Below, piece after piece: positions 3,224 through 63,683 of a stretch of DNA of 64,000 nt. Source of the stretch: an uncultured bacterium (GTDB taxonomy: Bacteria; Krumholzibacteriota; Krumholzibacteriia; WVZY01; JAKEHA01); the NCBI GenBank assembly GCA_964621155.1, contig CAZULB010000001.1:10402-74401 (forward strand), read 5' to 3'. Under the pieces are notes generated by a model, which saw nothing but the letters and a program-made list of their open reading frames with translations, did not search any database and was not told where the DNA came from. How positions within the stretch are numbered: the first letter of the stretch is position 1; the number at the start of each line of letters is the position of its first letter. Both the position numbers and the translations under genes were made by a program.

Positions 3224-3274
3224 TCGGTAAACCCGGCGTCCGTTGCGGCGCCGCTATAATGGAGGAACGCGAGC

Positions 3275-4426: not shown

Positions 4427-4433
4427 ATGAGCG

Positions 4434-5438: not shown

Positions 5439-5443
5439 TGCGG

Positions 5444-9737: not shown

Positions 9738-10508
9738 TTAGTGGCCCGCCGGGCGCCCCTCGAAGACCGGCTGCCCCGCTTGAAGTAGTTTCAGGACAAC
9801 AGCTTGCGCGGCTTCTCGGGAGCCGGAAAAGACCAGCGTAATGCCGCCTTCTCCGGTGTGCAGACCCTGCACCGAGGTCCGATTGGCGGCAAACGCGGCG
9901 GTCGCGGTTCCTTCTCTTTCGACGCGGAGAAGCTGCCAGGCGTCACCATCAAAATCGAGATGCCACTCGACGGGGACGGTCGACTGCAGCCGCAGCCGGA
10001 CCGCCAGGTTGGAGCCCTGCTCTTCGATACTGGCGCCACCCGAGACGGTGCCTTTTTCGGTTTCTACCGGGATGGAACCGAGCGTGGCGCGCTCATCGGA
10101 AACCATCGAACCGGAAATGCTGCCCGGATCGACACTGCGCGCGTTCCACATGCCGGGACGTCCCTGCTGAACGGCTATAAGAATCAGAGCGCCCGCCGCC
10201 AATCCCAGACCGAAGGTGGACCAGGGGCGCAGCGCAACCGAGAAGAATCCTTTTCGCACCGGCGCCATCTGCACCGGCCGGCGCACGCTCTCGCGTTGCA
10301 CGGCATCCAGAATGCGCGGCTCGAGTTCGGTGGGAGGCTCGGGCATGGGTTCGTGGTTCAACTTCTCGACCACGCGCGCCAACGACTCATAATAGGAGCG
10401 CGCCGTGGGATCAGCGGTGAGCACCTTCTCCAGCTCGGCGCGTTCGCGCGGCGATGCGACGCCGTCGATGGCCAGATTCATGAGTTCTATGGTTTTGGGC
10501 TCGATCAT
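9738..10508 (-). CDS. Anti-sigma factor (single-pass membrane protein)
   Basis: N-terminal anti-sigma domain (ELMNLAIDGVASPRERAELEKVL...YYESL). One TM (GLGLAAGALILIAVQ). Its start overlaps the ECF sigma stop by 4 nt (ATGA). Confidence 0.65.
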   Translation of the reverse strand: MIEPKTIELMNLAIDGVASPRERAELEKVLTADPTARSYYESLARVVEKLNHEPMPEPPTELEPRILDAVQRESVRRPVQMAPVRKGFFSVALRPWSTFGLGLAAGALILIAVQQGRPGMWNARSVDPGSISGSMVSDERATLGSIPVETEKGTVSGGASIEEQGSNLAVRLRLQSTVPVEWHLDFDGDAWQLLRVEREGTATAAFAANRTSVQGLHTGEGGITLVFSGSREAAQAVVLKLLQAGQPVFEGRPAGH

Positions 10509-11062
10509 TCCGTGATCCCCCTTGCGGTCAGGATGTCCTTGAGCTGCTGACGGGCAGTAAACAGGCGGGACTTCACGGTCTTTTCCGGGACACCGAGCAC
10601 GTCGGCCATCTCCTGGTAGGAGAAATCGTGGTAGTGCTTGAGCACGATCACCATGCGATAGTCCGGTTTCAGCATTTCGATGGCCTCGACGATCTCCTCG
10701 CTCAGTGCCGCGGCGCTGTGCGTCGCTTCCTGCGTGGGCGCCAGCACGACACTCTCCCCGCTCTGATACTCCTCGTTGCGTTTGGCCCGGTTCGTAAAGT
10801 TGATCGATTCATTGATGGTGATGCGATAAATCCAACTGAAGAACTCATGCCTGTCATCGTACGAATCGAGCTTCTGGTACACCTTCACGAACACGCCCTG
10901 CACGATGTCCATGGCGTCGTCCCGGTCGCGGGTCATGCGCAGCGCCAGGTGGTAGAGAGGCTTCTCGTACTTGCGCACGAGGGCATCAAAGGCGCGCGAA
11001 TCACCCGCGAGGCATTGCCGGACCAGGATGGCGTCGGCGTTCGGGTCTTTCAGTGAAGACAT
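10505..11062 (-). CDS. ECF (sigma-70 family, group 4) RNA polymerase sigma factor
   Basis: Region 2 (DAMDIVQGVFVKVYQKLDSYDDRHEFFSWIYRITIN) and region 4 (LSYQEMADVLGVPEKTVKSRLFTARQQL) motifs. Confidence 0.85.
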   Translation of the reverse strand: MSSLKDPNADAILVRQCLAGDSRAFDALVRKYEKPLYHLALRMTRDRDDAMDIVQGVFVKVYQKLDSYDDRHEFFSWIYRITINESINFTNRAKRNEEYQSGESVVLAPTQEATHSAAALSEEIVEAIEMLKPDYRMVIVLKHYHDFSYQEMADVLGVPEKTVKSRLFTARQQLKDILTARGITE

Positions 11063-49300: not shown

Positions 49301-49886
49301 GAATGCCCTGTTTCTGCAGGCCGTTGATGTCGGTCTCGGCGAAGACACCGCACTTCCCCGCCACGTGGTGCAGCTTGACCCCGTTATAGCCCTGCTCGCA
49401 CAACTGCTCGGGAGGAATGCGCAGCTTGGCGTTGATCTTGTCGATGACGGCACCGGTTCCACCCGCGCATTTGTCATTCATCGACGGAATCTTCTTCTTG
49501 CGGCCGGTCTCGGGGTCTTCCTTGAAGACGATGATCTTGGCGTCCTGTCCGCCCAACTCGATCACGGAACCTGCGGCCGGATGCACCTTCTCGACGGCGA
49601 GACACACCGCGTTCACTTCCTGCACGAACTTGGCGCCCAGTTTGGGCGCGATGTTCATGCCGCCGCTGCCGGTGATGAACACGCAGGTTTCCCCCGCCGC
49701 GGTGGCGGCGCGAAGCCCGTCGACTTCTTCGTCGATGCGCTTGAGGAACTCGAGAACTTTTTCGGGTTGTTTGGTCTCGTGGCGCTGGTAGTCGTGCCAC
49801 ACCATGGCGTCCGTAGCGGGATCGACCACGACCGCCTTGACGGTCGTGGAGCCGACATCCATGCCAATGAGGAACCGGGCAGCCAT
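46371..49886 (-). CDS. CoA-substrate-specific enzyme activase (two BadF/BadG/BcrA/BcrD-type ATPase domains) fused to a 2-hydroxyacyl-CoA dehydratase-like domain
   Basis: N-terminus FLIGMDVGSTTVKAVVVD and second copy FIGLDGGSTSTKAVLVN (acetate/sugar-kinase fold ATPase). The 1171-aa architecture matches COG1924+COG3580/3581 fusions. Confidence 0.75.
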   Translation of the reverse strand: MAARFLIGMDVGSTTVKAVVVDPATDAMVWHDYQRHETKQPEKVLEFLKRIDEEVDGLRAATAAGETCVFITGSGGMNIAPKLGAKFVQEVNAVCLAVEKVHPAAGSVIELGGQDAKIIVFKEDPETGRKKKIPSMNDKCAGGTGAVIDKINAKLRIPPEQLCEQGYNGVKLHHVAGKCGVFAETDINGLQKQGIPTEELMASLFEAIIGQNLSVLTRGHTLRPEVILLGGPNTYIRGMREAWQHNIPITWKEREVKLPEGVDPKSLIVVPQNAQYYAALGAVEYGKDEDEGVGVYKGWTALEEYINVGRKQSKAKASVGLSKDPADLASFKERYREEPFEPATFAPGEVVRAFIGLDGGSTSTKAVLVNEAREVICKAYQLSKGNPIKDTIEVIGDIQRHVESFGARLEILGVGTTGYAKDVLRDVLAADAAIVETVAHAESALHFYDDVDVICDVGGQDIKIMVLKDGSVKDFKLNTQCSAGNGYFLQSTAGEFGVPVEKFADTAFGAEQMPTFGYGCAVFMQSDIVDFQRQGWTAGEIMAGLAAVLPKNIWLYVAQIPNLAKLGKKFVLQGGTQRNLAAVKSQVDFISSRFRGTADDLPEVIVHKHCGESGAIGAALEAQRLHANGRITSFIGLDAIQTISYTTHTSEDTRCHFCKNECLRTFIDVEASKKAIKREQGEVDTASATAGARKSKVPLMPGARRLIVNNSCEKGLVEDVESMREIKKDLDARLKAAPNFIEKSARDVFKSFKPESVADPLPKHAFTSGQKARIEQMKKRESYRIGIPRMLNQYSTNPLFSAYFESLGIRPHNLVYSDYTTEDLYKEGAKRGAIDPCFPSKLGIPHVHNLIFKQHEKKPLDAIFFPMIDDLKSEIYKAQDCRACPTVTATPEAVKAAFTKEGDTFAKKGIQYLCPVVNVAQPHLFARQMFAAWKDVLGISEKENERAAEAGFKALDEYVVSTRAAAREVLEELERENKIGIVVLGRPYHNDPGINHEILVEFQKLGYPVFTQDSLPIDDDILDWLFGDEVRAGDIAHPMDISDVWKNAYSENTSRKVWAAKYTARHPNLVALEVSNFKCGHDAPIYSVVEEIIERSGTPYYSFKDLDENRPAGSIKIRVETIGYFLKRYREDKLRDEWRERVVEHEDAAARASAALIPAENPSEDHLFEVA

Positions 49887-50391: not shown

Positions 50392-53300
50392 CTATTTGAG
50401 CAGTACCATCTTCTTCGTGTCGACGAACTCGCCTGCGCGCATGCGGTAGAAATACACGCCCGAGGCGACGCGCTGTCCGCGATCGTCGTCTCCATCCCAG
50501 TGCACTGACCATGATCCTGGGTTGCGTCGCTCGTTCACGAGCTCGCGCACGCGGCGTCCGGACACGTCATAGATCGAGATGTTCACATCGGCGCCACCCG
50601 CGGGCACGTCATACGTGATCGCGGTAAGCGGATTGAACGGATTGGGAATGTTCTGCCCCAACGCGAACGCGAGCGGTCGATTGCCGGTACCGGTCGGCAA
50701 GAGATGGGGCTTTACGACGACCACGTGCGACGCCGCAGTAGTGGCGAGGAATCCAGGAATGGTCGCCGAGACAGTGACGCTGCCAGGATTCAGCGGACCG
50801 AACTCCACACCGCCGAGCACCGCCGACGCCGCCGATTGCGACTGGCCGGCCGGAATCGCCACGACGACTGGTGAGCCATTCAGCGCATCTGTGACGAGCG
50901 TCGCGAAACCAAGATCGGATAGCGACACCGTCGCATTCAGCGTCGGGCCGCCGGGGCGCACGAACTGCGGAGCCCCGACAGTGGCCTGATCACTGCTCGC
51001 CGTGCCCACTCGTACCACGAACGGATCATTGGGATCATTGTCCATGATTGAATCCGGCAAGAGCGCAACCTGCAGTGCAGGTTGCACCACGTTCGCCACG
51101 CGAACGCCCGAGGTGAAGGTGGGCACGCTGGCCGAGACCGTTGATGTGCCCATCGCAACACCCTGAACGTAAAAGGAAACCTGTGTGCTCCCGTTCGATA
51201 GCGGGAAGTCCAGCGAAGCCGTCCCCGGCGTGGAGAAATTAGGGGCAAGCAGTGCGACTGATGGGTCGCTGCTCGCGACGTGCACCGTAACGCCACCGTG
51301 CTGGGCCAGTCCCAACACCGCGCTGATAACACCGCTCTGCAATCCCTCCCCGACATCTTCAATGGCTCCCATGGTAACGATACGCTGCGAAACGACCACC
51401 TGCTGTGTCGCCGCGCCCATCGGCGTGAAGCCCGGGATGGTCGCCGCCACCAGCGTTGTCCCGGGCCCGAGCGGATCGAACGCGACGCCGCCGGTGGCAA
51501 CGGTGGCACCCGACGATGACGCGCCAGCCGAAATGTTGACCGTGACCGATGCGCCGGTGGCAGGCGTCGTCACCAGCTGACCGGCGACCGCGTCGGTGAG
51601 AGTGATGGTTGCGGTCACACCCGGACTTCCGGCGCGCACCGACTGCGCGGGATTGACGGACCCATTGCCGCTCGCGGGCAGTCCCACGCGCACCTGGAAC
51701 GGGTCGTTGGGATCCGTGGCGTCGAACGCCGCGGCGAGACCGATCATGTCGAGCGCCGGTGTGACGATGGTCGCCGTCTGGCTCGCCGAGATGAACCCGG
51801 GCGCCGACACGGTGATCAGTGACGTGCCCGTCACGTTCTCCATTCCCGAAACGTAGAACGTGGCAGTCGCGGATCCGTTGGCCACGGATAAATCGATGGA
51901 GGCGCTGCCCGCCGTGCTCGCGTTCGGCGCCACCAGCGCGACCGATGGGTTCGCGCTTGCGATGTGCGCCGTGACGCCTCCGTGATTCGACACGCTCAGT
52001 GTGGCCGAGTTCCCCGAGTTCTGAAGGCCGGCGCCGATGGTCCCCAGCGCACCGAGAGAAATGGTCGGTTGCGTGACGGCCACCGTCTGACTGGCGGCCG
52101 TGGTCGTAATGAAACCAGGAATCGTGGCGGAGACCGTGGTCGATCCGAGCGCGGTCCCGTCAAAGGCGACGCCGCCCGTCGCGACCGTCCCAGGCGACGT
52201 TGAATTTCCGGGGGTGATTGATACCACCACCGAATCTCCGGTGAGCGGCGTGGTGATGAGGTCGCCGACCGGATGGCTGGAATTCTTGATGGTGGCCGTG
52301 AGGGGGACACCCCCCGCACGAATGTTTTGCGTTGAATTCACGCTGGTGTTGCCCCCGGATGGCAATCCGACGCGGACATAGAACGGGTCGCTCGGAGCGA
52401 GCGTGTCGAGGGTTGTGACCAGACCGCTGATGTCGAGCGCCGGCTGCACGACGGTCGCCGTCTTGCTCGCCGAGGTGAACCCGGGCGCCGACACGGTAAT
52501 CAGTGATGTGCCGGTCACGTTTTCCATGCCGGAGATGTAGAAGGTCACACCGGTGGATCCGTTCGGCACGAACGCGTCGAACGAGGCGTTCCCCGCGGTG
52601 GTTGCGGTGGGAGCCACGAGGGCCACGGATGGGTTGGCGCTTTCGACGTGCACCGTCACGCCGCCGTGCTGCGACGCGCTCAGCGTGGCCAAGTTCCCCA
52701 AGCCCACAAGACCCGAGCCGACATTGGAAATTGCGTTGAGCGTGATCACGGGCTGCGTGACGGTCACCGTCTGACTGGCGTTCGTCGTCGCTATGAAACC
52801 GGGGATGGTGGCGGACACGGTGGTCGAGCCAAGCGCGGTCCCGTCGAAAGCGACGCCGCCAGCCGCGACGGTCGTCGGCGAGAAGTAAGAACCGACGGGG
52901 ATCGTCACCGTGACGGAGTCCCCGGTGAGGGCCGTGGTGATGAGATCGCCGACCGCGATTGCGGAATTCTTGATGGTGGCCGTGACGGGGACACCCCCGG
53001 CACGAATGCTTTGCGTCGGATTCACGCTGGTGATACCGCCGGATGGCAGGCCGATCGTGACCCAGAACGGGTCCACGGGATCGAGCGTGTCGAGGGTGGT
53101 GACCAGACTGCTGATGACGAGCGCGGGTTGCTGAACGTTTGCGAGCCGGCTGGCGTTGCCAAAGCCGGGCGCGGAAACGGTGATCAAGGAAGCGCCGCTC
53201 ACTCCTTCGAGACCCGACACGACGAACGACGTGCCCGTGAGCCCGTTGGCAAGGAAGATGTCGATAGAAGCAGTTCCGACGGTCGTTGCATTGGGCGAGA

Positions 53301-54189
53301 CCAACGCCACCGACGAATCGGCGCTCTCCACGTGAATGGTCACGCCGCCGTGCTGCGACCCGCTCAGTGTCACCCCATTGGCCAAACCCTGCAGACCCGA
53401 ACCCACGTTTCCGATTGCATTGAGCGTGATCACGGGCTGCGTGACGCTCACATTCGCGCTGGCCGCCGCGGTGGCAATGAATCCGGGAATGCTTGCCGAC
53501 ACCGTGGTCGACGCGACGTTCAGGCCGTCAAAGGCCACACCGCCCGCGGCAACGCTCGTCGGCGAATAGTAGAGACCGGGTGTGATAGAGACGGTGACCG
53601 TCTGGCCCGTAAGGGGCGTGGTAATGAGCTGCCCGGCGAACGCGTTCGAGTTGACGATCGTTGCCGTGAGTCCCGTGCCGCCGATGCGCACGCTTTGCGT
53701 TGGATTCACGGTGCCGTTGCCGCTCGATGGCAACCCGATCTGGACCCAAAACGGGTCCGCAGGATCGAGCGTGCCGATGGAGGTGACCAGGTTGGAGATG
53801 GCGACCGCCGGCTGAACAATGGTCGCGGTCCGGCTCCCGCTGGTAAACCCGGGCGCCGACACCGTGATCATCGCGGTGCCGGTGACGTTCTCCATGCCCT
53901 GAACAACGAATTGCACGCTGGATGACCCGTTGGGGACAAACACGTCGAACGATGCGCCGCCGGCGGTGGAGATGTTGGGCGCGACCAGAACCACCGACGG
54001 GTTGTCGCTCTCGACGTGCACGGTCTTGCCCCCGTGCTGCGACGTGCTCAAGGTGGCCGTGTTGGCGCTGCCCTGGAGTCCGCTCCCCACATTGGAGAGC
54101 ACGGGCACAGTGATGGTTTGTGCACGCGCGTTCGACGCCGCGAGCGTGCCCAGGAATGCAATGACAAGAATCAGCGGTGAGCGTTTCAT
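50392..54189 (-). CDS. Giant secreted repeat protein (5 x ~230-aa tandem domains) with T9SS-type C-terminal sorting domain
   Basis: Signal peptide MKRSPLILVIAFLGTLAASNARA. Repeated blocks begin (I)T(V/L)..(S/G)NVGSGLQG...SQHGG(K/V)T(V/I)HVES.DPSVALVAPN. C-terminus NPFNPLTAITYDV...ISIYDVSGRRVRELV...GVYFYRMRAGEFVDTKKMVLLK. Confidence 0.7.
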   Translation of the reverse strand: MKRSPLILVIAFLGTLAASNARAQTITVPVLSNVGSGLQGSANTATLSTSQHGGKTVHVESDNPSVVLVAPNISTAGGASFDVFVPNGSSSVQFVVQGMENVTGTAMITVSAPGFTSGSRTATIVQPAVAISNLVTSIGTLDPADPFWVQIGLPSSGNGTVNPTQSVRIGGTGLTATIVNSNAFAGQLITTPLTGQTVTVSITPGLYYSPTSVAAGGVAFDGLNVASTTVSASIPGFIATAAASANVSVTQPVITLNAIGNVGSGLQGLANGVTLSGSQHGGVTIHVESADSSVALVSPNATTVGTASIDIFLANGLTGTSFVVSGLEGVSGASLITVSAPGFGNASRLANVQQPALVISSLVTTLDTLDPVDPFWVTIGLPSGGITSVNPTQSIRAGGVPVTATIKNSAIAVGDLITTALTGDSVTVTIPVGSYFSPTTVAAGGVAFDGTALGSTTVSATIPGFIATTNASQTVTVTQPVITLNAISNVGSGLVGLGNLATLSASQHGGVTVHVESANPSVALVAPTATTAGNASFDAFVPNGSTGVTFYISGMENVTGTSLITVSAPGFTSASKTATVVQPALDISGLVTTLDTLAPSDPFYVRVGLPSGGNTSVNSTQNIRAGGVPLTATIKNSSHPVGDLITTPLTGDSVVVSITPGNSTSPGTVATGGVAFDGTALGSTTVSATIPGFITTTAASQTVAVTQPTISLGALGTIGAGLQNSGNSATLSVSNHGGVTAHIASANPSVALVAPNASTAGSASIDLSVANGSATATFYVSGMENVTGTSLITVSAPGFISASQTATIVTPALDMIGLAAAFDATDPNDPFQVRVGLPASGNGSVNPAQSVRAGSPGVTATITLTDAVAGQLVTTPATGASVTVNISAGASSSGATVATGGVAFDPLGPGTTLVAATIPGFTPMGAATQQVVVSQRIVTMGAIEDVGEGLQSGVISAVLGLAQHGGVTVHVASSDPSVALLAPNFSTPGTASLDFPLSNGSTQVSFYVQGVAMGTSTVSASVPTFTSGVRVANVVQPALQVALLPDSIMDNDPNDPFVVRVGTASSDQATVGAPQFVRPGGPTLNATVSLSDLGFATLVTDALNGSPVVVAIPAGQSQSAASAVLGGVEFGPLNPGSVTVSATIPGFLATTAASHVVVVKPHLLPTGTGNRPLAFALGQNIPNPFNPLTAITYDVPAGGADVNISIYDVSGRRVRELVNERRNPGSWSVHWDGDDDRGQRVASGVYFYRMRAGEFVDTKKMVLLK
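50650..54117 (-). repeat. ~690-bp tandem coding repeats (about 5 copies) within CDS 50392..54189
   Basis: Protein periodicity of ~230 aa. The antisense plus-frame ORFs (around 51.6, 52.2, 52.9 and 53.6 kb) recur with near-identical translations. Confidence 0.6.
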
Positions 54190-54261: not shown

Positions 54262-54573
54262 TCACGTGTATCCGTTCTTGAAGTTTTCCCACACGCTTGT
54301 CGTACCCGAGACGATGCCGGCGTGGGCAACCGCCGGGAGCGATTGCAGGTATGCGAGCGCGCGGACCGCAATCGTGTTGGGACTCTCTGCGCTCCACCGC
54401 TCCACCTGCCCGGCCACCAACCCGAGATTCTTCACCCAGGCGCTATCGCCACTCGTCACGGTCCCGCCGCCGCCACCTCCTCCGCCCCCGTCGTCCTTGG
54501 GTTCGGTACTGTTGTTACCGGAGCAAGCGGCGAAGACGACAAGAACAAAAAGGACGAGCGTTTCATGTGGAGC
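54262..54573 (-). pseudogene. Truncated N-terminal paralogue (about 100 aa) of lipoprotein gene 57251..59329, with an apparent 1-nt frameshift in the signal-peptide region
   Basis: ATG AAA CGC at 54573 reads MKRSS... in one frame. The downstream homologous frame (LFVLVVFAACSGNNSTEPKDDGGGGGGGGGTVT...TIAVRALAYLQSLP) aligns to MKRFALFLLIVFAACSSDNGTAPKDPGGGGGGGGGGAVT...SIAVRAAGYLSQQP of the intact gene and stops after ~100 aa. Confidence 0.35.
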
Positions 54574-54575
54574 AC

Positions 54576-57239
54576 CTACTTGAGAAGAACCATCTTCCTG
54601 GTTTCGACAAAATCGCCCGCCCGCATGCGGTAGAAGTACACACCCGACGCCACGCGCTGGCCGCGATCGTCGTCGCCATTCCATTGCACGGACCAGCTTC
54701 CCGGACCGCGGTGCTCGTTGACGAGTTCACGCACCCGCGCACCCGCGACGTCGTAGATCGTCATGTTCACGTCCGCTCCCCCCGCCGCCACTTCATAACG
54801 AATGGTGGTCTGCGGGTTGAACGGGTTGGGAACCGCCTCGTGCAATGCAAACTTGAGGGCGGGCTTGTCGCCCACCGCGGTGGCGGCCCCCGCGCCGATC
54901 ACGAACGGTGAAAGACTTGTCGTCGTGCCACAAATCACGTCGACGTCGGTGTCGAGGAGGGTGGTGATGTTGACCCAAGCGGGTGGATTGAGCGACGCGT
55001 CGTAGTGGAGCAATTGCAGCGATGCCTCGGGCACCGAGAGTGCGAACGGGTCGTACTCGATACACACCTCGATGGTGCCGTTGAAGCTGACCAGGGTGCT
55101 TATGTTGTAGAACCTCCCGTCACCGGCTGTGAAGGACCCGGGGAGGGCCGGGCCGGTGGACGTGACCTCGAGATTGGTTCTGCCCGACTGGGACACGTTC
55201 GCGAACGTGATGCCCACATTGTGCAATCCGCTTCCGTTTTCGTCCCACGGCTGAATGTGCACGTTGTTCCCCACCGGCGTGTTCGGAAGCAGGAACGCGA
55301 CCGTGTTCGAGACCACGCTGCGATTGCAGTTCAGGTCCAGGGCAATCACCGACCAGTACTGATCTGTGCCCCCGGGGTTGGAGATGGTGTAGAGCGTGTC
55401 GGTTGCCGTGTCGTAGTAGCTTTCGAAGGGAGGCTGTACCGGAATCTGACTCATGTAGACGGCGTAGTACATGATGTCGGACGCGGGTCGCGACCAGTGG
55501 AGCTGCAGCAAGCCGGGCGGAACGATGTGCGACGCGAGGACCGACGCCGGCGGCGCGATGTTGTCGAACGAAGTCCCATGCCGGATGTTCGATGATTCGA
55601 GCGAGGAGATGTAACCGAGCACCCGGAAGTTCTGCCCGAATAGCTGCCAGCACGTCGAATCATCCTGGGTCGGTTCGTTGGCGACATAGAGGTCGGTTCC
55701 GTTGTCGTTGATCCAGTCGATTGTGATCCATGCTCCGTTGTCGTTGCGCTGCACCTCGTACAGGTAGTTCTCACCGGGACGGTCGAGATCCTTCCAACGC
55801 ATGGTCACGTGCCGGCCCTCGTCGCCCGGCGTGTCAACGATCGATGTGATAACCGGCTCGGGATTTCCCCACGCTCCGGCCGCACTCATGCGCTGCGCAT
55901 AGGTCTGCGAGGTACCGCTGCGGGCATCCGACCAGGCGATCATGCTGGCGCCGTTGACGCTGGGCGCGATCACGGGGGTGACTTGTGCCCCGGTGGCAAG
56001 ACAGACTTCGGAGCCTTGCAGCACGAAGAAGAGATTGCCGAGCGCATCAACGCGGCGCGCATAGATGTTGTCTCCCGCGACGCGCTGATCCTGCCAGGTG
56101 ATGATGGCGCCGTTGGAGCCGTCGGTCGTCAGGGTGGGCGCAACCTGGTGGCCGGACGCGGTACAAACCGCAACTCCATCGGCTGTCCACAGGGCGGTGC
56201 CGCTGGCGTTCACGCGCCGGGCGTAGATGTCGGCATTGCTGAGGCCGTTGCGCATGTCGCGCCAGGTCGCGATGCCGCCGCCTGCGCCGTCGGCAATCAA
56301 GATGGGATCGTACTGATCACCGAGCGAGCCACAGAGCACCACGCCGTTCGCGGCCCACAGCATATTGCCTGCGCCGTCGGTGCGCTGGGCCCAGATATCG
56401 GTGTGGGAGATGCGTCGATCCTGCCACACGACGATGGCGCCACCGGCACCGTCGGAAACAATCTTCGGGACATTCTGACTCGCGCCCGCGTTGCAGACGA
56501 TGACTCCGTCCGCGGTCCACAGCGGCGTTCCGCTGGCGTTCACGCGACGGGCGTAGATGTCGGCCTGCAGACTGCTGACGCGCTCATCGTGCCACACCAC
56601 GATGGCGCCACCCGCGCCGTCGGATGCGATCGAGGGACCATCCTGGTTGTTCGCTGCGGTGCACAACGCAACGCCGTTCGTCGCCCACGCCCGCTTGCCG
56701 TCCGAATCGTAACGCGCGGCATAGATGTCCGCGCTGCCGCTGCGCGTGTCGTCCCACGCGATGATGGCCCCGCCCGCGCCATTCGACGCAATCACGGGGT
56801 GTGCCTGCGTGCCGGTCGCCGTGCAGACAGCGACCCCGTTGCCGGTCCAGGCCGACTTGCCGGACCCATCTACTACCTGCGCGAAGATGTCCCCGGTGGC
56901 GTTACGCCCGTCTTCCCAGACAATGATCGCTCCACCCGCACCATCGGCGATGATCGCGGGATTGATCTGATCGCCGGCCGCGGCGCAAATCGTTGCGCAC
57001 CACACGGTGTTTCCCGCGGGAGTAATCCGGGACGCGACAATGTCGTAGGCTCCATTACTCGCGTCGCCCCACGCGATGATGGCTCCGCCGGCGCCGTCAG
57101 AGGCGATCGCGGGTGCCTGCTGCGCCCCCGTCTTCGCGCACGGCGGAAGGCCGTTGATCACCCATTGTGCGTTCGCGGTCGCGATTGCCACAACGCACAC
57201 AAACGCGGTTGTAAGTATCAGGGTTGCGTGCCTCTTCAT
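54576..57239 (-). CDS. Secreted protein with 8 tandem ~47-aa repeats (DGAGGAI[IV]xW...DIYAxRV...GV.VCTA) and T9SS-type C-terminal sorting domain
   Basis: AGGAG RBS. Signal peptide MKRHATLILTTAFVCVVAIATANA (ATG 57239). C-terminus NPFNPQTTIRYEV...MTIYDVAGARVRELV...GVYFYRMRAGDFVETRKMVLLK. Confidence 0.7.
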   Translation of the reverse strand: MKRHATLILTTAFVCVVAIATANAQWVINGLPPCAKTGAQQAPAIASDGAGGAIIAWGDASNGAYDIVASRITPAGNTVWCATICAAAGDQINPAIIADGAGGAIIVWEDGRNATGDIFAQVVDGSGKSAWTGNGVAVCTATGTQAHPVIASNGAGGAIIAWDDTRSGSADIYAARYDSDGKRAWATNGVALCTAANNQDGPSIASDGAGGAIVVWHDERVSSLQADIYARRVNASGTPLWTADGVIVCNAGASQNVPKIVSDGAGGAIVVWQDRRISHTDIWAQRTDGAGNMLWAANGVVLCGSLGDQYDPILIADGAGGGIATWRDMRNGLSNADIYARRVNASGTALWTADGVAVCTASGHQVAPTLTTDGSNGAIITWQDQRVAGDNIYARRVDALGNLFFVLQGSEVCLATGAQVTPVIAPSVNGASMIAWSDARSGTSQTYAQRMSAAGAWGNPEPVITSIVDTPGDEGRHVTMRWKDLDRPGENYLYEVQRNDNGAWITIDWINDNGTDLYVANEPTQDDSTCWQLFGQNFRVLGYISSLESSNIRHGTSFDNIAPPASVLASHIVPPGLLQLHWSRPASDIMYYAVYMSQIPVQPPFESYYDTATDTLYTISNPGGTDQYWSVIALDLNCNRSVVSNTVAFLLPNTPVGNNVHIQPWDENGSGLHNVGITFANVSQSGRTNLEVTSTGPALPGSFTAGDGRFYNISTLVSFNGTIEVCIEYDPFALSVPEASLQLLHYDASLNPPAWVNITTLLDTDVDVICGTTTSLSPFVIGAGAATAVGDKPALKFALHEAVPNPFNPQTTIRYEVAAGGADVNMTIYDVAGARVRELVNEHRGPGSWSVQWNGDDDRGQRVASGVYFYRMRAGDFVETRKMVLLK
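55900..57170 (-). repeat. ~140-bp tandem coding repeats (8 copies) within CDS 54576..57239
   Basis: GAGGAIIAW / GAGGAIIVW / GAGGAIVVW / GAGGGIATW / SNGAIITW blocks at regular ~47-aa spacing. Confidence 0.55.
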
Positions 57240-57250
57240 TTCACTACTCC

Positions 57251-59329
57251 TCAACGCGCCGCATCCGGATCGGGCAGGAAGAACGGCGTAATATCGTTCC
57301 ATCTGATTTTTGCCTGCCCGTCCAGCTCCGGGCCAAGATGGGTGACCAGGGGAGTCACCGAACATGAGCCGCGCTCGCCCTTCAAGATTTCGAAATCGTT
57401 GTTCATCGGGATGAGGAACGCGGTCGCCTGTCCGTGGTCGTCGAACAAACAGTCCTCGGTTGCGACCTGAACGTAGAGCGGCTTGCTGAAGTTCTCGCAG
57501 TCTCCCGACCGCTTCCACGTCCCCGCCGTGAACACGGCGAGGACTTGCATGGCCAGTCGCAGCTGATGAGCCTTGGTATCGACGGATCCGAAATACACGT
57601 AGAGCCCATCGGGACTTCCATACCAGACGGACTCGATCTTTCCTCCCTGCCCGAGCGTGTAGGTGTCCGTGCAATCGGCGATGGTTTCCGAGTATTCGCC
57701 GCCCGTGGTGATTTCGATCCTGGAGTCGTCGCTTGGCCCGAAGAGCACTGTGGTTTCGAACGGCTCCTCACCCGGCTCGTCGCGGAACGAATGAATATCG
57801 GCGCGGAAGCGGAGGCTTATTTTCATCTGGGCGGTTTGACTGCCGGGATCATCGCGGTCGTACGTCCACTCGCCCTTCCACTCGGTGAGGTTTACGGGAT
57901 TGCTAATGCGTGCATCGTCTCCGGTCCCGACCTTGACGACGACGGTGCCGGATGCATTGCTGCCCGTGTCGGGCAGGTCGCAGTTGATTTCCGACGGGAA
58001 CCACTCGACATTGTCGAGCCGCACGTCGTTGATAGTCACCTCACGGTTGCCTTCACCAGGATCGGTTCCGAAAAGCCCCGCGATGATGAGTCGGCGGCGA
58101 TCGGGGGTTTCGTCGACCGAGAGGAACTGGATGGTCGGCGACAGGAGACCGAAGTCGCCGTTCATCCGTGTCGGTGTGAGTACGGCGTTCTTGTATGGGT
58201 CATCCGTAAGCTGGCGGTGAACTTTCATGTCGTTCAGCACCTGATCAATGTTGAACGCCCGCTGCTTCGGGTCTTCGGGTGAGATTTCGTTCGTCCCCAA
58301 CAGACGGTCGAACAGGTATTTCATCGCTTTGTACGCGAACCTGTCATCCACCTGGGTGGTCCATCCCAGGTAGAGGGACGCACCGTTGTTCTTGAAGGCC
58401 TGTTGCATGTCGAACGCGGCAGCGGATGCACTCGAACATGCGTCGATGAAGACGAGGCTGTTTTTTCCGAAGCTCATGTTCTCCGCCACGAACCCGGCCG
58501 TGATTCCATAGTGGCACACATTCCGGCATTTCCCCTGCTCGTCGCGGCCTCGTTCCGTCATGATCACAAGATCACCGTTGTGGAGCATCTTGTTATACGA
58601 TTCGAGCGTGTTCCACTCGTGCGTCGTTGTCGTCCACAAACCGTAGACGGGAATCCCGTCATCGTTCTTCCCCACCCCTCCGTGCGTATCGAGGTAGAAA
58701 ATGCCGTTGCCACGAACTTTCTTCATGTCGTCAACACTGCCTTCGAGATCGCCTGCATTCACGTAGTGTCCCTTGCGCAGCAGCATCTTTAGGACTCCCA
58801 GAGGATTGACAAAACACGAGCCGATCGCATTGACGGCACGGAATGTGGGCTGCGCGGGAAGCTCGAGTCCCTTGGATGGAATGCGCATGGCTTTCATCAT
58901 CTGCCGGCCGGCCGGGATGGCAACACGCCTCGGGGGCGCGACCCGGCTCGGCGCTTGCGCAGCGACGTCGTCGATGAGCGTGTCGGTCGCAGCGCTTTGG
59001 TTGCGATTGTTGGGAAAGATCAGGGAAACGCCGTCCGTGAAGACGGCCCAGACCGTCGTCTCTCCCGGTGTGATGCCGGAGGACTTGATCAATGGTTGCT
59101 GGCTCAAGTAGCCGGCCGCGCGCACGGCGATGCTGTCCGCGCTCATTCCGTCCCACAGGTCGAGTTGCGCCGCGAAATCCTGCATCGCCTCGACACGAAG
59201 CGAGTCGATATGAGTGACCGCTCCGCCACCGCCCCCCCCGCCACCACCACCGGGATCCTTGGGAGCGGTTCCGTTGTCACTCGAGCACGCGGCAAACACG
59301 ATCAGGAGAAAAAGGGCGAAGCGTTTCAT
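57251..59329 (-). CDS. Lipoprotein with poly-Gly tether and caspase-like (clan CD, gingipain/legumain/clostripain-type) cysteine-peptidase-like domain
   Basis: Signal peptide with lipobox MKRFALFLLIVFAACS. A run of 12 Gly. Candidate catalytic dyad: His in YLDTHGGVG and Cys in SLVFIDACSSAS (H-G ... D-A-C). Confidence 0.55.
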   Translation of the reverse strand: MKRFALFLLIVFAACSSDNGTAPKDPGGGGGGGGGGAVTHIDSLRVEAMQDFAAQLDLWDGMSADSIAVRAAGYLSQQPLIKSSGITPGETTVWAVFTDGVSLIFPNNRNQSAATDTLIDDVAAQAPSRVAPPRRVAIPAGRQMMKAMRIPSKGLELPAQPTFRAVNAIGSCFVNPLGVLKMLLRKGHYVNAGDLEGSVDDMKKVRGNGIFYLDTHGGVGKNDDGIPVYGLWTTTTHEWNTLESYNKMLHNGDLVIMTERGRDEQGKCRNVCHYGITAGFVAENMSFGKNSLVFIDACSSASAAAFDMQQAFKNNGASLYLGWTTQVDDRFAYKAMKYLFDRLLGTNEISPEDPKQRAFNIDQVLNDMKVHRQLTDDPYKNAVLTPTRMNGDFGLLSPTIQFLSVDETPDRRRLIIAGLFGTDPGEGNREVTINDVRLDNVEWFPSEINCDLPDTGSNASGTVVVKVGTGDDARISNPVNLTEWKGEWTYDRDDPGSQTAQMKISLRFRADIHSFRDEPGEEPFETTVLFGPSDDSRIEITTGGEYSETIADCTDTYTLGQGGKIESVWYGSPDGLYVYFGSVDTKAHQLRLAMQVLAVFTAGTWKRSGDCENFSKPLYVQVATEDCLFDDHGQATAFLIPMNNDFEILKGERGSCSVTPLVTHLGPELDGQAKIRWNDITPFFLPDPDAAR

Positions 59330-59430
59330 GCGGCCACCTACCGGGGGTCACGGTTGTCTGGTGCTGGCTGTGGACCGGTAGACGAACCAGGACCGCCGAA
59401 ATCATGCGGCGACCGAAAAAAGGCCGGGGG

Positions 59431-60102
59431 CTAGCGCGTGCGGATGGAGCCGGGAGCAGAGGTGGCGATCACGTCGCCCTGGGAAAGGGCGAAAACCCGC
59501 CAGGTGAGGTCAAGGTGAGGCACCTGGTTGGGAGGTAGAACAGCGCGCTCAATGGTCAACGAAGTTGCCGCTGTATTCGACGAACGATAGATTTCGCCGA
59601 AGTCAGGGCCGTAGAGACGGACCTGGTACGCGTCGGCACCCGCGGCGGGAGTCCAGCTCAAAAGGATCCTCTCGCCTCCTGCGAGTTCTGCAGGATTGAG
59701 CGCAAATGCCTGCGACGACGTCGCGCTGTCGCGCAACGAGCTCTGTTCCGGTTCGCGGGTAGTCCAGAAAACCGCTGCGGCAATGACCACCAAGCTGGCC
59801 GCGAGGAGCGGGGCGGGACGCAACATGGCCTGCCACCGGGAGGCGCGCGCCGGCGCTTGCGACGCTTTCCAGCGTGAGGCGTCGGCACGAATTCGCGCAT
59901 CCAGCATGCCACGTGCGCGCTCGAGCTCTGAGCCCTCGACGGGTGCCGCCTCCACGAACGACTGATAGGAAGCCACGAGGCTCTTGCAGCGTGGACAGCT
60001 TTCCGCGTGCCGACGGACCGGGTCGTCGACCGGAAGTTCGAGCACCATCCCGGCCTCGCGCGTATCGATGCACTCGGCGTCCATGCGTTTCTCGTCTTTC
60101 AT
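59431..60102 (-). CDS. Anti-sigma factor with zinc-finger (zf-HC2-like) N-terminus and one TM
   Basis: H...C..C motif (RRHAESCPRCKSL). TM LLAASLVVIAAAVFW. Periplasmic C-terminal domain. 4-nt overlap (ATGA) with the upstream sigma gene. Confidence 0.65.
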   Translation of the reverse strand: MKDEKRMDAECIDTREAGMVLELPVDDPVRRHAESCPRCKSLVASYQSFVEAAPVEGSELERARGMLDARIRADASRWKASQAPARASRWQAMLRPAPLLAASLVVIAAAVFWTTREPEQSSLRDSATSSQAFALNPAELAGGERILLSWTPAAGADAYQVRLYGPDFGEIYRSSNTAATSLTIERAVLPPNQVPHLDLTWRVFALSQGDVIATSAPGSIRTR

Positions 60103-60692
60103 TTTGCTTCCCTCCTTCGCTCCAGTGCAGCGCGAAGCTTCTTGCGCGCGCGCTGCAGCACGGTGCGCGCGCCCGAGGCGTTTTCCAGTTTCATGATACG
60201 TGTCACGTCATCGATTCTCATCCGCTCGACACAACGCAGCCAGATCGCCTGCTGTTCATCCGGTTCGAGCTCGGTGCGAATCATCTGCAACAGCCACTGC
60301 TCGTCGCGTTCTTCGTTCAGTGCCGCATCCGGCGTCGGCCTGCCGTCCGGCGCGGAGGTGACGGCGTCCTCGTCGAGCAGGTAACTCACATGCCGGCTGG
60401 CGTCGATGCATCGATTACGCGTCACCGCGAACAACCAGGACGAGAACTTGGCCCGTCCCTCGAATGTGCCCATCCGCTCCCAGACGCTGGTGAGCACGTC
60501 CTGGGAAAGATCGAGCGCGCGCTCCACGTCCCCGGTGTAACGGAAACACCACAGGTACACCGAGTCACGGTACCGCAACACGAGCTCGGTCGCGGCCGCA
60601 CGGCAGCGCTCCGCATCGCCGCCCGAACGGACAACGAGCAGAAGTTCCTCATCGGGGACAGTCTTGTCCCACCTGTTTGACGAAGCACCCAT
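60099..60692 (-). CDS. ECF (sigma-70 group 4) sigma factor
   Basis: Region 2 (ALDLSQDVLTSVWERMGTFEGRAKFSSWLFAVTRN) and region 4 (RMRIDDVTRIMKLENASGARTVLQRARKKL). Confidence 0.85.
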   Translation of the reverse strand: MGASSNRWDKTVPDEELLLVVRSGGDAERCRAAATELVLRYRDSVYLWCFRYTGDVERALDLSQDVLTSVWERMGTFEGRAKFSSWLFAVTRNRCIDASRHVSYLLDEDAVTSAPDGRPTPDAALNEERDEQWLLQMIRTELEPDEQQAIWLRCVERMRIDDVTRIMKLENASGARTVLQRARKKLRAALERRREAK

Positions 60693-60724
60693 GAATAATC
60701 ACGCGCAATCGGTGCGCCTGGCCA

Positions 60725-63628
60725 TCATCCCACGAAGGCGCGGGCGCGTCGATGTCGTATGAAGAGCCCGACGGCAACCAGGAAAAAAGCTCCTGCCAAC
60801 GCCTTCAGGGCGAAACTCAATGTTACCAGGCGCTTTTCAACGGGTAGTGTCCGTGCCCCATCGCCCACCACCGTGAAGCCGGACCAGTAGAAGGGATGCG
60901 CCCAACGCGTCATGTGGCTGGCGTCGAGTTGGGCGTGACGCAGTGCCGTAGCCACGGACTCGCCGTCGGAAAGATTGCGATAGAACGATCGCATGATGAC
61001 GGCCGTGGCCCTGTCATCCACCGGCCACAGGCTGGCGACCACAACCGGTACCCCCGCGCTCAAGAATGCGGCGGTCAGACCGATGGTTCCCTCTCCCGTG
61101 GTCATGCGGCCGCCGGCAGTTTCACACGCGGACAACACGGCGAGTCGCGCAGGGATATCCAGTTTCGCGATCTGCCACGCCCGCACGTACGGATCGGACG
61201 GAAACGTTCGTTCGATGGTGAGCGAATCCACGTCGGAAAGAAAACCGGCGCGCGTGTGCGTCGTGGCCGTGGCACGCGATGCAAGCGTCTCTGCGGTCGC
61301 ACTCTTCGTACTCCTCAGTTCGATCCCCGACCACCATGGAGAACGATCCACCAGCAGAGCATGCGACGCGATATGCAGCACATCGGCGCGGCCGGCGGCC
61401 TCCCCGAACGCGTCCGGCCCGCTCAGATCGGCAAGCGTTTCGACGTGACGATACTGCCGCGCCAGGTCGCGCACCTCTTTACGCGCTCCCGACAGCCCCA
61501 CCGCGGAGGCGCTGATTGCAACCACTCGCAGCGGCGTCTGAGGTTCCGGTCGGAGGGCGGTTCGCTGGAGCACGAGCACGCCGGCCGACGGAACCTGAAC
61601 GACATCCCGCTTCTGCATCAGCCCATCGTTTCCATCGCCGATGATCAGAAGGCCGAACGGAATCGACGCAAAGTATCCGTCCGGACACACGAACACGCGC
61701 GTCGATGCATCGACAATAGTCGCCGCGCCGCCCAGGATGTCGCGGCCGAGCGCGCGTTGTACGGCGACGAGCCGATCGACGCTGTATTCGTCGCGCAGTG
61801 AGTTATCCGTGCTGGCGAGCACGGTGCGCAGCAGTTGGACGCGTTCCTGGAGCCCCGACGCCGGGCCAGGCAGTTCGACGAACCGTAACGAGTCCGCCGT
61901 TACCGCGGCGAGAAACGACGCCTTCACCCCCACGCAGAAATCGAGCACCGCTTCTCCCGGGCGCAAAGCGGATTGCAAATCCGCCAGCGTCGCGGACTGT
62001 TCCGGCAATCGTGCCGCGTTACCCGAGGCGCCGGCTCGGGGTCGGTTGATGCGGTCGAGAAGTGCGCGTGTCTTGACGCGCTGAATCGCATCGAAGAAGG
62101 AGCGCTCACGAACCGACGGCGCGGCCGACTCGGGATACTCGAGCAATACGCGCCCCGCCTCGACTACATCCTGCGCCACCCATTGCCCGTAGACCTCGCG
62201 CCACTCTGCCGTGCTGATCCCGCCGCGCACCGCCGTGAGACTGTCGAGGGCAGCGTAATATGTCTTTGTGGCCTGCGCACGATCGCCCGCCACACGCAGA
62301 CACTTGCTTTCAAGAAACATCGCCGCGACCATGGCGCGTCTTTGTCCGTTGGTCAGAGCCACTTCCCGTGCACGTCGCGCGCATAGAAGGGCCTCCTGAG
62401 TGTTTCCGTTGTCGGCGTAGAGACGCCCGAGCACCAGGTTCGCTTCGGGCAGGTTCTCGGCGTAGAAACTGGTGCCGCGGGCCCTCATATGCCCGGACAG
62501 GAGTTCGATCGCGGCGGCGGCACTGTCGCTCGAAAGGGATTCGGCCAGGTCCACGATGAGCAGGTCACGATGCTGGGCTTCCAGCCCGCCGGTGCGAATC
62601 AGGCGGCGCATGATGCTCCTCGCGTTCGCGTGCCGGCCCTGTGCCACCCGGAGGACGGCAAGTTGGTAGTCCAGAACAGGAATCTGCTCCAGCGTCCCCT
62701 GCGTCTCGCACACGGCGCGCGTCTGGTCGAGCACCTTTTCGGCGGTTTCGTAATCACCCAGCTCCCCGAGTCGAGCGGACAGGTTGGTGGCGGGAATGAC
62801 CATCGCGACGGGGGACCTGAGTTCCTTCGCCAGAACCAGGGCACGTTGGAGATACTCCCAGGCCCGGCTCATGTCGCCCTGAAAGTTCTCCATGGCGGAG
62901 AGATTGTTGAGCGACCACATCTCGTTCATGCGGTCGCCCACCTCCCGCGCTGCCACCCACGATTGCTTGTACCACCGAATGGCCGCGGGCCCGTCGCCGA
63001 CGGCGCTGGCAATACGTCCCAATCCGATCAAGGGTTCAATTTCAAATCGCTTCGTGCCGGCGGCGTGGAAGAGCGCGAGTGCACGCTCGTATTCCTGCTT
63101 CGCGCGTTTCTGGTCGCCGGTAGCGTGGAAGACCATGCCGAGAGACGTGCGCGCCCACGCTTCGTCGACCGGTGCGTGCGCACGCTCGGCGAGCATCAGA
63201 CGGTGCTCGAACCAGCGAGCCGCCTCATCGGGCTGTCCGGCGCTCCAGCGCGCGAACCCTTTGAAACTCAGCGCGGGCATGAGACCCATCGTGTCCTGCA
63301 CGGACTCCGCGATGCGTATACCGGTGTCAATTTCGCGTTCGGCATCAGGATGCCCGAGCATCAGGAGCGCGCGCCCACGCTGTGTGATGGCGCGGCCGAA
63401 GAGCATCGAATCCCCGCTCGCTTCGGCGCGCCGCATGAAGGTGGACGCAATAGCACGGAGCGAGTCGTATTGTCCGGTAGTGAACAGATTCTCGCTGAGG
63501 TTGCGCAGGGAGTCTGCGGTTGTATGCGAGGACGGGGCCGGAGGCGCGGCACCCGACGTCAGCACGCCCGCGATCAGAAGCGAGCAGACGGCGAGCGTAA
63601 GACGACGGGCGCGGGAAAGGGCAACCAC
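60725..63628 (-). CDS. TPR-repeat CHAT-domain protein (caspase-like) with N-terminal signal peptide and C-terminal TM anchor
   Basis: Multiple TPR helices. C-terminal CHAT signature: His (ADVLHIASHALL) and Cys (LAVLSACETAGG) motifs. Terminal hydrophobic segment LKALAGAFFLVAVGLFI. Confidence 0.75.
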   Translation of the reverse strand: MVALSRARRLTLAVCSLLIAGVLTSGAAPPAPSSHTTADSLRNLSENLFTTGQYDSLRAIASTFMRRAEASGDSMLFGRAITQRGRALLMLGHPDAEREIDTGIRIAESVQDTMGLMPALSFKGFARWSAGQPDEAARWFEHRLMLAERAHAPVDEAWARTSLGMVFHATGDQKRAKQEYERALALFHAAGTKRFEIEPLIGLGRIASAVGDGPAAIRWYKQSWVAAREVGDRMNEMWSLNNLSAMENFQGDMSRAWEYLQRALVLAKELRSPVAMVIPATNLSARLGELGDYETAEKVLDQTRAVCETQGTLEQIPVLDYQLAVLRVAQGRHANARSIMRRLIRTGGLEAQHRDLLIVDLAESLSSDSAAAAIELLSGHMRARGTSFYAENLPEANLVLGRLYADNGNTQEALLCARRAREVALTNGQRRAMVAAMFLESKCLRVAGDRAQATKTYYAALDSLTAVRGGISTAEWREVYGQWVAQDVVEAGRVLLEYPESAAPSVRERSFFDAIQRVKTRALLDRINRPRAGASGNAARLPEQSATLADLQSALRPGEAVLDFCVGVKASFLAAVTADSLRFVELPGPASGLQERVQLLRTVLASTDNSLRDEYSVDRLVAVQRALGRDILGGAATIVDASTRVFVCPDGYFASIPFGLLIIGDGNDGLMQKRDVVQVPSAGVLVLQRTALRPEPQTPLRVVAISASAVGLSGARKEVRDLARQYRHVETLADLSGPDAFGEAAGRADVLHIASHALLVDRSPWWSGIELRSTKSATAETLASRATATTHTRAGFLSDVDSLTIERTFPSDPYVRAWQIAKLDIPARLAVLSACETAGGRMTTGEGTIGLTAAFLSAGVPVVVASLWPVDDRATAVIMRSFYRNLSDGESVATALRHAQLDASHMTRWAHPFYWSGFTVVGDGARTLPVEKRLVTLSFALKALAGAFFLVAVGLFIRHRRARAFVG

Positions 63629-63683
63629 GCGTCGATTATATACCTATCAGGCGCAGCCGGGCATAAGTGGCCGGGTGAATCAG

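Follow-up and report, generated by a model that had tools for sequence, protein, structure and literature searches.

A TPR-CHAT protein, an extracytoplasmic function sigma factor and its anti-sigma factor form a conserved, split DdvA-like cassette beside a predicted caspase-fold lipoprotein in a Krumholzibacteria-type genome

We have followed up a first-pass annotation of a 64-kb window (the whole stretch of DNA analysed, 64,000 nucleotides, to which all coordinates refer) by investigating a minus-strand gene run that spans positions 63628 down to 50392. Genes encoding a TPR-CHAT protein, a sigma factor of the extracytoplasmic function (ECF) type and an anti-sigma factor are followed in this run by a lipoprotein gene, by T9a, a gene for cargo of the type IX secretion system (T9SS), by a gene relic and by a second cargo gene, T9b. 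The TPR-CHAT, sigma and anti-sigma genes are a stable unit, best described as a split DdvA-like module, and we read this cassette as most likely a module for regulated proteolytic signalling. The lipoprotein belongs to a large, unannotated family present in many phyla, is predicted to be a lipid-tethered extracytoplasmic cysteine peptidase and, together with T9a, appears to be an output of the sigma switch in this lineage. The genes placed by the first-pass annotation are all observed on the minus strand where it had located them. The nearest homologues bearing names derive from metagenome-assembled genomes (MAGs) of Candidatus Krumholzibacteria or Latescibacteria and not of Bacteroidota, which makes the source a relative within the Fibrobacterota-Chlorobiota-Bacteroidota (FCB) group and no member of Bacteroidota. 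G+C content of the window is ∼62%. The four genes on which the argument rests are as follows.

60725..63628, minus strand: TPR-CHAT protein, 967 aa (Pfam CHAT 2e-47, and many TPR families)
60099..60692, minus strand: ECF (group IV) sigma factor, 197 aa (Sigma70_r2 6.7e-15; TIGR02937 75.6 against a cut-off of 42.9)
59431..60102, minus strand: zinc anti-sigma factor, 223 aa, with a CHCC site and a single transmembrane segment (TM), overlapping the sigma gene by 4 nt
57251..59329, minus strand: lipoprotein, 692 aa, with a lipobox, a Gly tether, a CHAT-like caspase-fold domain, an IPT/TIG domain and a beta-sandwich

Conservation of the cassette is observed throughout the orthologues of its first gene. 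TPR-CHAT orthologues form ∼50 clusters (at least 45% identity, ∼960 aa), all Krumholzibacteria-type, beyond which similarity falls sharply to generic TPR-CHAT proteins. A metagenome scan with an alignment of orthologues yielded 78 loci. Sigma and anti-sigma genes lie directly downstream in 16 of the 16 CHAT orthologues with at least 33% identity for which downstream DNA is present, representing two subclades, against 0 of ∼60 generic TPR-CHAT loci. The dedicated sigma/anti-sigma pair beside the TPR-CHAT gene, noted previously, is supported, and so is, for the cassette, the regulated proteolytic signalling module suggested at the time. Gene-neighbourhood conservation, proposed at the same time as a check, is obtained for the cassette and only in part for the lipoprotein, whose adjacency to the cassette is limited to one Krumholzibacteria subclade. 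A conserved gene ahead of the CHAT gene was considered and rejected, as the upstream genes are unrelated between loci. In one cassette locus (L042, 5081-8575; L-numbers denote the other fetched loci and WIN that of the window) a second TPR-CHAT paralogue begins ∼20 nt past the anti-sigma gene, giving tandem CHAT genes.

The TPR-CHAT protein is a member of the CHAT family, its match scoring 162.5 bits against a cut-off of 24 (Pfam PF12770) and including the His/Cys dyad. TPRs occupy residues ∼60-460 and the CHAT domain residues 641-923 (nt 60860-61708), within which H752, H756 and C835 are invariant across 17 orthologues, down to 45% identity. A signal-like N-terminus (residues 9-30) and a C-terminal TM (933-959) followed by an Arg-rich tail, RHRRAR, suggest a location outside the cytoplasm, the TPR-CHAT portion being predicted to lie on the periplasmic side. 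The membrane-anchored TPR and CHAT protein with a C-terminal TM described in the first-pass annotation is thus confirmed.

The sigma factor contains sigma-2 and sigma-4 regions only, the latter weakly matched (Sigma70_r4_2 at 0.012), as in group IV, again in agreement with the earlier description of an ECF sigma gene upstream of the lipoprotein gene. In the anti-sigma factor, the CHCC zinc site (C11, H32, C36, C39; HAESCPRC) is invariant in 22 orthologues, helices are confidently predicted at residues 14-51 and one TM is present at 92-116. The H-x3-C-x2-C motif, N-terminal helical domain, single TM and gene position directly after the sigma gene are those of class I zinc anti-sigma (ZAS) factors. 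Of the zf-HC2 assignment made previously, the zinc site is borne out; Pfam zf-HC2 itself gives only sub-threshold matches (4 of 22 orthologues, best E 0.015), and the window protein obtained no more than a weak anti-sigma hit in the Pfam and NCBIfam scans. Beyond the membrane, a juxtamembrane linker carrying a conserved P-E-x3-L-R (L123-R124 at nt 59731-59736) leads to a periplasmic Fn3 domain (residues 135-221, nt 59440-59700). Anti-sigma homologues (n = 36) range from 125 to 232 aa, most being 217-232 aa, and none of the 36 is fused to a CHAT domain. A PDB sequence search with the anti-sigma factor returned nothing.

In the RseA/DegS/RseP and RsiW/PrsW systems, ECF anti-sigma factors undergo regulated intramembrane proteolysis (summarised in PMC11506125 and PMC10028731). 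As with RseA and RsiW, the window encodes a single-pass anti-sigma factor together with its sigma factor, for which cleavage at site 1 in the periplasm and then at site 2 within the membrane would be expected. The difference lies in the candidate site-1 protease, a caspase-fold cysteine protease of the same cassette rather than a serine protease or metalloprotease encoded elsewhere.

The closest described system is DdvA/DdvS of Myxococcus xanthus. There, the anti-sigma factor carries the TPR-CHAT region as its periplasmic domain, and CHAT autoproteolysis of the linker, followed by the action of RseP, is proposed (PMC11506125). The authors name DdvA as the sole TPR-CHAT anti-sigma factor to have been characterised and report DdvA-like proteins from Myxococcota and a single Comamonas species only (PMC11506125). 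In both systems, a single-pass anti-sigma factor whose CHCC zinc site is cytoplasmic holds an ECF sigma factor, a TPR-CHAT region with a His/Cys dyad is placed on the periplasmic side (by prediction in the window), and a flexible juxtamembrane linker is the proposed site-1 target, with RseP acting next. However, the TPR-CHAT of the window forms a protein of its own, with a signal-like N-terminus and a C-terminal anchor, and the anti-sigma factor extends into the periplasm only with the linker and Fn3 domain, so that the single polypeptide of DdvA is absent; the predicted regulon, in a different phylum, would comprise T9SS cargo and a protease lipoprotein rather than a defence island of CRISPR and cyclic-oligonucleotide-based antiphage signalling (CBASS) genes. 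A PDB sequence search with the CHAT protein matched TPR proteins only, and not DdvA.

Two CRISPR-associated systems share part of this logic. In craspase, the TPR-CHAT protein Csx29 cuts the sigma inhibitor Csx30 (type III-E Cas7-11, CASP-sigma; PMC10028731), so that, as proposed here, cleavage of an inhibitor of an ECF-like sigma factor by a TPR-CHAT protein switches on neighbouring genes that carry a sigma-specific motif. Craspase works in the cytoplasm, belongs to a CRISPR system and is switched on by RNA, and its Csx30 is no membrane ZAS protein, whereas the window components acting upstream of sigma are predicted to be extracytoplasmic or membrane-bound. SAVED-CHAT/PCaspase of type III-B CRISPR (bioRxiv 10.1101/2023.06.23.546230; PDB 8tl0) likewise encodes two caspase-like proteases and a sigma factor together but acts in the cytoplasm in response to cyclic oligoadenylate. 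Among the six locus proteins scanned with Pfam and NCBIfam none shows a SAVED domain; no CRISPR gene is detected among the window genes scanned, and no defence-system membership by PADLOC, in which the CHAT protein matched weakly only TPR and BovA. The literature searched on CHAT proteins in combination with ECF sigma factors yielded only the DdvA and CRISPR papers, and the main text of an ECF classification paper (PMC7826278) does not mention CHAT. The arrangement, which the first-pass annotation did not recognise as a described system, is new in its split form, although its logic is known in the fused form of DdvA/DdvS (PMC11506125).

The lipoprotein gene begins 101 nt downstream of the anti-sigma gene, and the T9a ATG lies 11 nt past the lipoprotein stop. 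A bipartite motif, GTGATT-N15-CGTC(c/t)(t/a)A, is observed downstream of the anti-sigma stop, and two copies, scored with a position weight matrix (PWM), and a further promoter-like box are located in the window as follows.

59377..59406, minus strand: motif copy (a), CATGATTTCGGCGGTCCTGGTTCGTCTACC, within the 101 nt that separate the lipoprotein gene from the anti-sigma gene (PWM 24.0)
60675..60703, minus strand: motif copy (b), GTGATT-N14-CGTC, overlapping the annotated sigma start codon (PWM 28.3, highest in the window)
63635..63640, minus strand: TATAAT box, 6 nt upstream of the CHAT-gene GTG start

Copy (a) is the single match to TGATT-N14/15-TCGTC on both strands of the 64 kb. The motif is found at the same spot past the anti-sigma stop in L008, L009, L039, L040, L044, L045, L046, L049 and L055 and, by a count made by eye, lies behind the anti-sigma gene in 10 of the 12 loci in which the next gene lies on the same strand past an intergenic gap, while the gene behind it varies (lipoprotein, T9a-like gene or a ∼360-aa protein with a T9SS C-terminal sorting domain, CTD). 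It is additionally present upstream of T9b-like genes (L008, L009) and of the lipoprotein gene in L039; the PWM scan detects none ahead of T9b in the window. The PWM, built only from loci other than the window and controlled with 30 shuffles, ranks the two window sites first and second (28.3 and 24.0), the next best site scoring 17.5 and the shuffle maximum 19.6. Density of the strict motif is 3.8 per 100 kb in cassette loci and 0.36 per 100 kb in the other fetched loci. Copy (a) is thus a candidate cognate ECF promoter, and its placement suggests that the lipoprotein-T9a operon is likely an output of the switch.

Copy (b) is present in 15 of 18 cassette loci, in the form GTGA(T/C)(T/A)-N14-15-CGTC, its position being shared by L001, L009, L039-L046, L049 and L053-L056, and in the window the annotated sigma ATG sits within the motif spacer. 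Coding conservation as the sole explanation was rejected, as codon 4 of sigma is always NCG while the residue varies (Ser, Ala, Thr, Pro), indicating a constraint at the DNA level. An in-frame ATG or TTG occurs exactly 7 nt after the CGTC in five loci, a spacing compatible with an autoregulated transcript that is leaderless. The idea of a start codon behind every copy (b) was rejected, as this holds in those five loci only and not in the window. Copy (b) may act as an operator, as an autoregulatory promoter or in some other way. Ahead of the CHAT gene, TATAAT, TATACT, TAGACT or TAGAAT lies 6-8 nt before the GTG in WIN, L008, L009, L039, L040, L046, L047, L049 and L051, which suggests a housekeeping-type promoter and a leaderless CHAT mRNA.

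The set of genes around the cassette is preserved despite reshuffling of their order. The order CHAT, sigma, anti-sigma, lipoprotein is observed in WIN and L009, lipoprotein, CHAT, sigma, anti-sigma, T9a-like in L008, and CHAT, sigma, anti-sigma, T9a-like, lipoprotein in L039 and L040, while L001 contains the cassette, T9a-like and lipoprotein genes together with further genes between them.

The lipoprotein carries the lipobox VFAAC, within MKRFALFLLIVFAAC, and Cys15 is invariant in 16 closer relatives, identifying it as a bacterial lipoprotein; a lipobox-like motif, defined by our own regular expression, is present in 99 of 198 family members. The Gly tether reported previously is observed, with a length of 10 (residues 27-36, nt 59222-59251) and not 12 residues. 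It is followed by an N-terminal domain (40-105), a variable linker (110-135), the CHAT-like caspase-fold domain (∼150-380, nt 58190-58882), an IPT/TIG domain (383-467, nt 57929-58183) and a C-terminal beta-sandwich (479-677, nt 57299-57895). The candidate dyad consists of H216 (nt 58682-58684) in YLDTHGG and C298 (nt 58436-58438) in FIDACSS. The 61 relatives that were aligned, the most distant at 22% identity, all share H216, C298, D341, R342, R357 and F359, and in a 200-member set both dyad residues are present in 194 of the 196 members covering both positions. D341 and R342 (DRLLG helix), R357 and F359 (QRPF), at ∼58253-58309 on the minus strand, are kept in 193-198 of the 200 members and are candidates for a specificity pocket.

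An AlphaFold2 model built from the 61-relative alignment (pLDDT 89.8, pTM 0.84) contains disordered residues 1-34, a small N-terminal domain, a low-confidence linker at 110-135, an alpha/beta core, an IPT-like domain and a large beta-sandwich. In this model H216-G217 follows strand 206-214 and C298 follows strand 286-296, the His-then-Cys order of clan CD. Foldseek with the model ranks the craspase TPR-CHAT best (E 1.5e-4), followed by separases, and hhalign against the CHAT-domain alignment pairs H216 with H756 and C298 with C835 (E 9.5e-5). CHAT is also the only peptidase family with sub-threshold Pfam hits (11 of 61 relatives, best E 5e-4). The window lipoprotein has no Pfam or NCBIfam match at E≤0.1, does not reach the Pfam CHAT (PF12770) gathering score, has no match to legumain C13 or clostripain C11 hidden Markov models (HMMs) and, in sequence and profile searches of PDB, gives only an IPT-like match to an amylase domain. 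Combined, these results indicate that the lipoprotein is a divergent CHAT-like clan-CD caspase fold, nearer to the CHAT domain of its neighbour than to gingipain or legumain, and it is best called CHAT-like rather than a PF12770 member as currently defined. The clan-CD lipoprotein with a conserved His/Cys pair recognised in the first-pass annotation is therefore borne out, and its motifs stand, while the kinship drawn to gingipain, legumain and clostripain does not, CHAT and separase being closer and C25, C11 and C13 models giving no match. Nor does the locus contain two different caspase-fold domains, as had been stated, the lipoprotein domain being of the same kind as the neighbouring CHAT.

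The family to which the lipoprotein belongs extends far beyond the cassette. A homologue search found 67 close to moderate relatives, none with Pfam domains, and a profile search of 1.84 billion representatives (50%-identity clusters) returned 5094 matches at E≤0.001, of which 1334 reach E≤1e-30; among the 150 best matches listed, nearly all span close to the full length. Some members carry extra N-terminal Calx-beta and PKD domains, but the family core has no Pfam model. A genome scan with a 16-sequence lipoprotein alignment, at one genome per species, located 29 lipoprotein-family loci in at least eight lineages: Latescibacteria/Krumholzibacteria, Bacteroidota, Ignavibacteria, Chthonomonadales, Fimbriimonadaceae, Burkholderiales (including cultured Ramlibacter and Variovorax), Holophagales and other Acidobacteriota, Desulfobacteraceae and Anaerolineales, the family being abundant in Armatimonadota, Acidobacteriota, Burkholderiales and Anaerolineales. 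One homologue (P0066; E 3.8e-15, 27% identity) derives from a Methanomicrobiales archaeon MAG and could reflect horizontal transfer or a binning artefact. Tandem duplicates of the family gene are observed in L011 (9773-17727, a Bacteroidota MAG) and L005 (3137-7165). In a flank search with the window proteins, CHAT, sigma and anti-sigma genes near the lipoprotein family are restricted to Krumholzibacteria-type loci. A lipoprotein neighbour conserved across phyla was rejected by all-against-all comparison, in which only CTD proteins recur (8 loci).

The remaining genes of the run encode T9SS cargo and a relic of the lipoprotein gene.

54576..57239, minus strand: T9a, 887-aa secreted protein (TIGR04183 28.6 against a cut-off of 23; TIGR04275 repeat 7.4e-17)
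54262..54570, minus strand: relic of a second copy of the lipoprotein gene, keeping the lipobox, Gly9 and ∼100 N-terminal aa up to a stop, with the remainder missing
50392..54189, minus strand: T9b, 1265-aa secreted protein (TIGR04183 33.8 against a cut-off of 23)

T9a, which starts at the ATG at 57239 and not at the start of the long open reading frame (ORF), has a signal peptide and ∼10 beta-propeller-type repeats (GAGGAIIAW..D.R...DIYA.R), which a middle region connects to a T9SS type A CTD; T9b consists of repeats of ∼230 aa and a T9SS type A CTD and is possibly co-transcribed with the lipoprotein gene and T9a. Both exceed the TIGR04183 cut-off and are thus T9SS type A cargo. The relic between them (49% identity to lipoprotein residues 4-100, E 2e-19) indicates past duplication and rearrangement here. 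T9a-like genes adjoin lipoprotein-family genes in L001, L008, L011, L024, L039 and L040, the T9a-type CTD matches in L011 (7e-87) and in L024 (an Ignavibacteria MAG, 3-7158; 1.3e-86) occurring without the cassette. The embedding in T9SS cargo proposed in the first-pass annotation is correct with regard to two giant proteins with sorting domains but, CTD genes being frequent here, is partly a base-rate effect.

Taken as a whole, we read the locus as a CHAT/sigma/anti-sigma switch driving an output operon of the lipoprotein peptidase and T9a, a reading in which our confidence is evenly balanced. The CHAT protease would be activated from the periplasm, the signal probably being a protein that the TPRs bind, and, acting as the site-1 protease, may cut the anti-sigma juxtamembrane linker at P-E-x3-L-R. 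An RseP-type site-2 protease would next free the sigma factor, which would transcribe from GTGATT-N15-CGTC promoters. The output operon would begin at the motif past the anti-sigma gene, comprise the lipoprotein gene and T9a and may run through the relic into T9b. The lipoprotein would most likely cleave or mature envelope or secreted proteins, the T9a-type protein being the best candidate partner. A stronger version, in which the surface pathway is a two-tier caspase-like one with a trans-acting TPR-CHAT site-1 protease, sigma induces the lipoprotein protease and its T9SS beta-propeller partner, and the lipoprotein represents a new clan-CD family, appears unlikely to hold in all its parts.

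Several observations weigh against the switch-and-output reading. The cassette is absent near the 28 lipoprotein-family genes of other phyla and near those of the close relatives L002 and L007, and, conversely, a flanking lipoprotein gene is missing from most cassette loci (L042, L044, L045-L056). This genome is rich in CTD genes, with five in the 64-kb window, or ∼1 per 13 kb, and because of this frequency T9SS adjacency alone carries little weight. The motif was found post hoc, and a transcript originating from copy (b) would lose the sigma ATG, no in-frame ATG, GTG or TTG following in the window. The window CHAT has no detectable sequence similarity to DdvA beyond domain families, and the hhalign probability linking the lipoprotein to CHAT is only 58.6%.

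The distribution data bear on the alternative that the lipoprotein is a chance or syntenic neighbour in one Krumholzibacteria subclade, expressed and used independently of the cassette. The cassette-only loci agree with this, no CHAT, sigma or anti-sigma gene lies within 10 kb of the lipoprotein gene in L002, L007, L004-L006 or any of the 28 loci of other phyla, and the lipoprotein gene is also syntenic with a BcrAD_BadFG gene. Mere chance does not readily account for the motif directly upstream of the lipoprotein gene in WIN, L009 and again L039, or for the same five gene types staying together in WIN, L001, L008, L009, L039 and L040 while their order changes, and we regard this alternative as rather less probable, if a serious one. 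The same loci bear on a cascade in which TPR-CHAT activates a lipoprotein zymogen, or in which the lipoprotein cuts the anti-sigma factor with TPR-CHAT as sensor or scaffold. Two CHAT-type domains with intact dyads in one locus, the variable, low-confidence linker at 110-135 between the N-terminal and catalytic domains as a possible activation site, and the precedent of a CHAT-to-caspase relay with an associated sigma factor (bioRxiv 10.1101/2023.06.23.546230) would be consistent with it. However, most cassette loci do without the lipoprotein, which hence can be no obligatory component of the switch, the family is widespread without any CHAT partner, and the position of the lipoprotein gene behind the motif fits an output and not an input; we consider either arrangement very improbable. 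A non-proteolytic role for TPR-CHAT, as a sensor or partner that holds the anti-sigma Fn3 domain, with release by binding competition or by a DegS/Prc-type protease encoded elsewhere, draws on the resting-state dyad of DdvA, whose dyad mutants have no phenotype under the conditions tested (PMC11506125), and on TPR and Fn3 being typical protein-binding modules. The invariance of H756 and C835 in 17 orthologues, down to 45% identity, and the resemblance of the conserved L-R in the anti-sigma juxtamembrane linker to a cleavage site point the other way, and we consider this role unlikely.

The first-pass annotation had drawn an analogy to the T9SS sortase PorU, from which it would follow that the lipoprotein is a PorU-like clan-CD peptidase removing or processing the CTDs of neighbouring cargo. 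There are similarities to gingipains and PorU (MEROPS C25), namely a clan CD fold, His before Cys, an extracytoplasmic location, Ig-like domains after the catalytic domain and adjacent T9SS cargo; the 11-nt gap predicts co-transcription with a CTD cargo gene, and T9a-like CTD genes adjoin the family in Krumholzibacteria, in L011 and in L024. In contrast to these enzymes, the lipoprotein has a lipid anchor, lacks a match to NF033707 (the PorU model) or Peptidase_C25, has no CTD of its own and is closest in fold to CHAT and separase. Many family members come from Burkholderiales, Armatimonadota, Acidobacteriota and Anaerolineales, and there is the archaeal hit, all from groups not known to carry a T9SS, and the CTD genes every ∼13 kb reduce the significance of adjacency. 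A sortase role is thus disfavoured by the spread of the family and by the absence of a CTD and of any PorU or C25 match: we do not regard the lipoprotein as a T9SS sortase, the analogy did not survive, and PorU-like processing of neighbouring CTDs has only a slight chance of being correct.

Should the switch-and-output reading hold, it would extend what is described of sigma-controlling CHAT proteases, which so far comprise fused DdvA, with its trigger and cleavage unproven, and cytoplasmic CRISPR-associated systems. Separation of protease and anti-sigma factor renders the proposed cleavage step directly testable in vitro, with a predicted site and a promoter read-out. The lipoprotein family, having no Pfam model, an intact dyad and members in cultured Variovorax and Ramlibacter, offers a tractable entry to possibly widespread surface cysteine proteases and, if the peptidase assignment is true, would define a new clan-CD peptidase family of more than 1000 sequence clusters in many phyla. 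The arrangement also suggests that part of the T9SS cargo of the FCB group is under dedicated envelope-signal control.

Rfam and tRNA scans gave no match within the locus, and a generic scan for sigma-70 promoters and terminators gave a chance-level result. Elsewhere in the window, a cobalamin riboswitch (Rfam RF00174, 94.5 bits) at 907-1105 on the plus strand lies upstream of a TonB-dependent receptor gene (1205-3223, plus strand), an ordinary arrangement. Another, unrelated ECF sigma gene is present at 10505-11062 on the minus strand, overlapped by a 256-aa ORF (9738-10508, minus strand) without Pfam hits, which is possibly its anti-sigma factor. The BcrAD_BadFG/DUF2229-type protein, of 1171 aa and encoded at 46371-49886 on the minus strand, takes its family names from orthologues in L001, L007 and L009, in which its gene is syntenic with the lipoprotein gene irrespective of the cassette.

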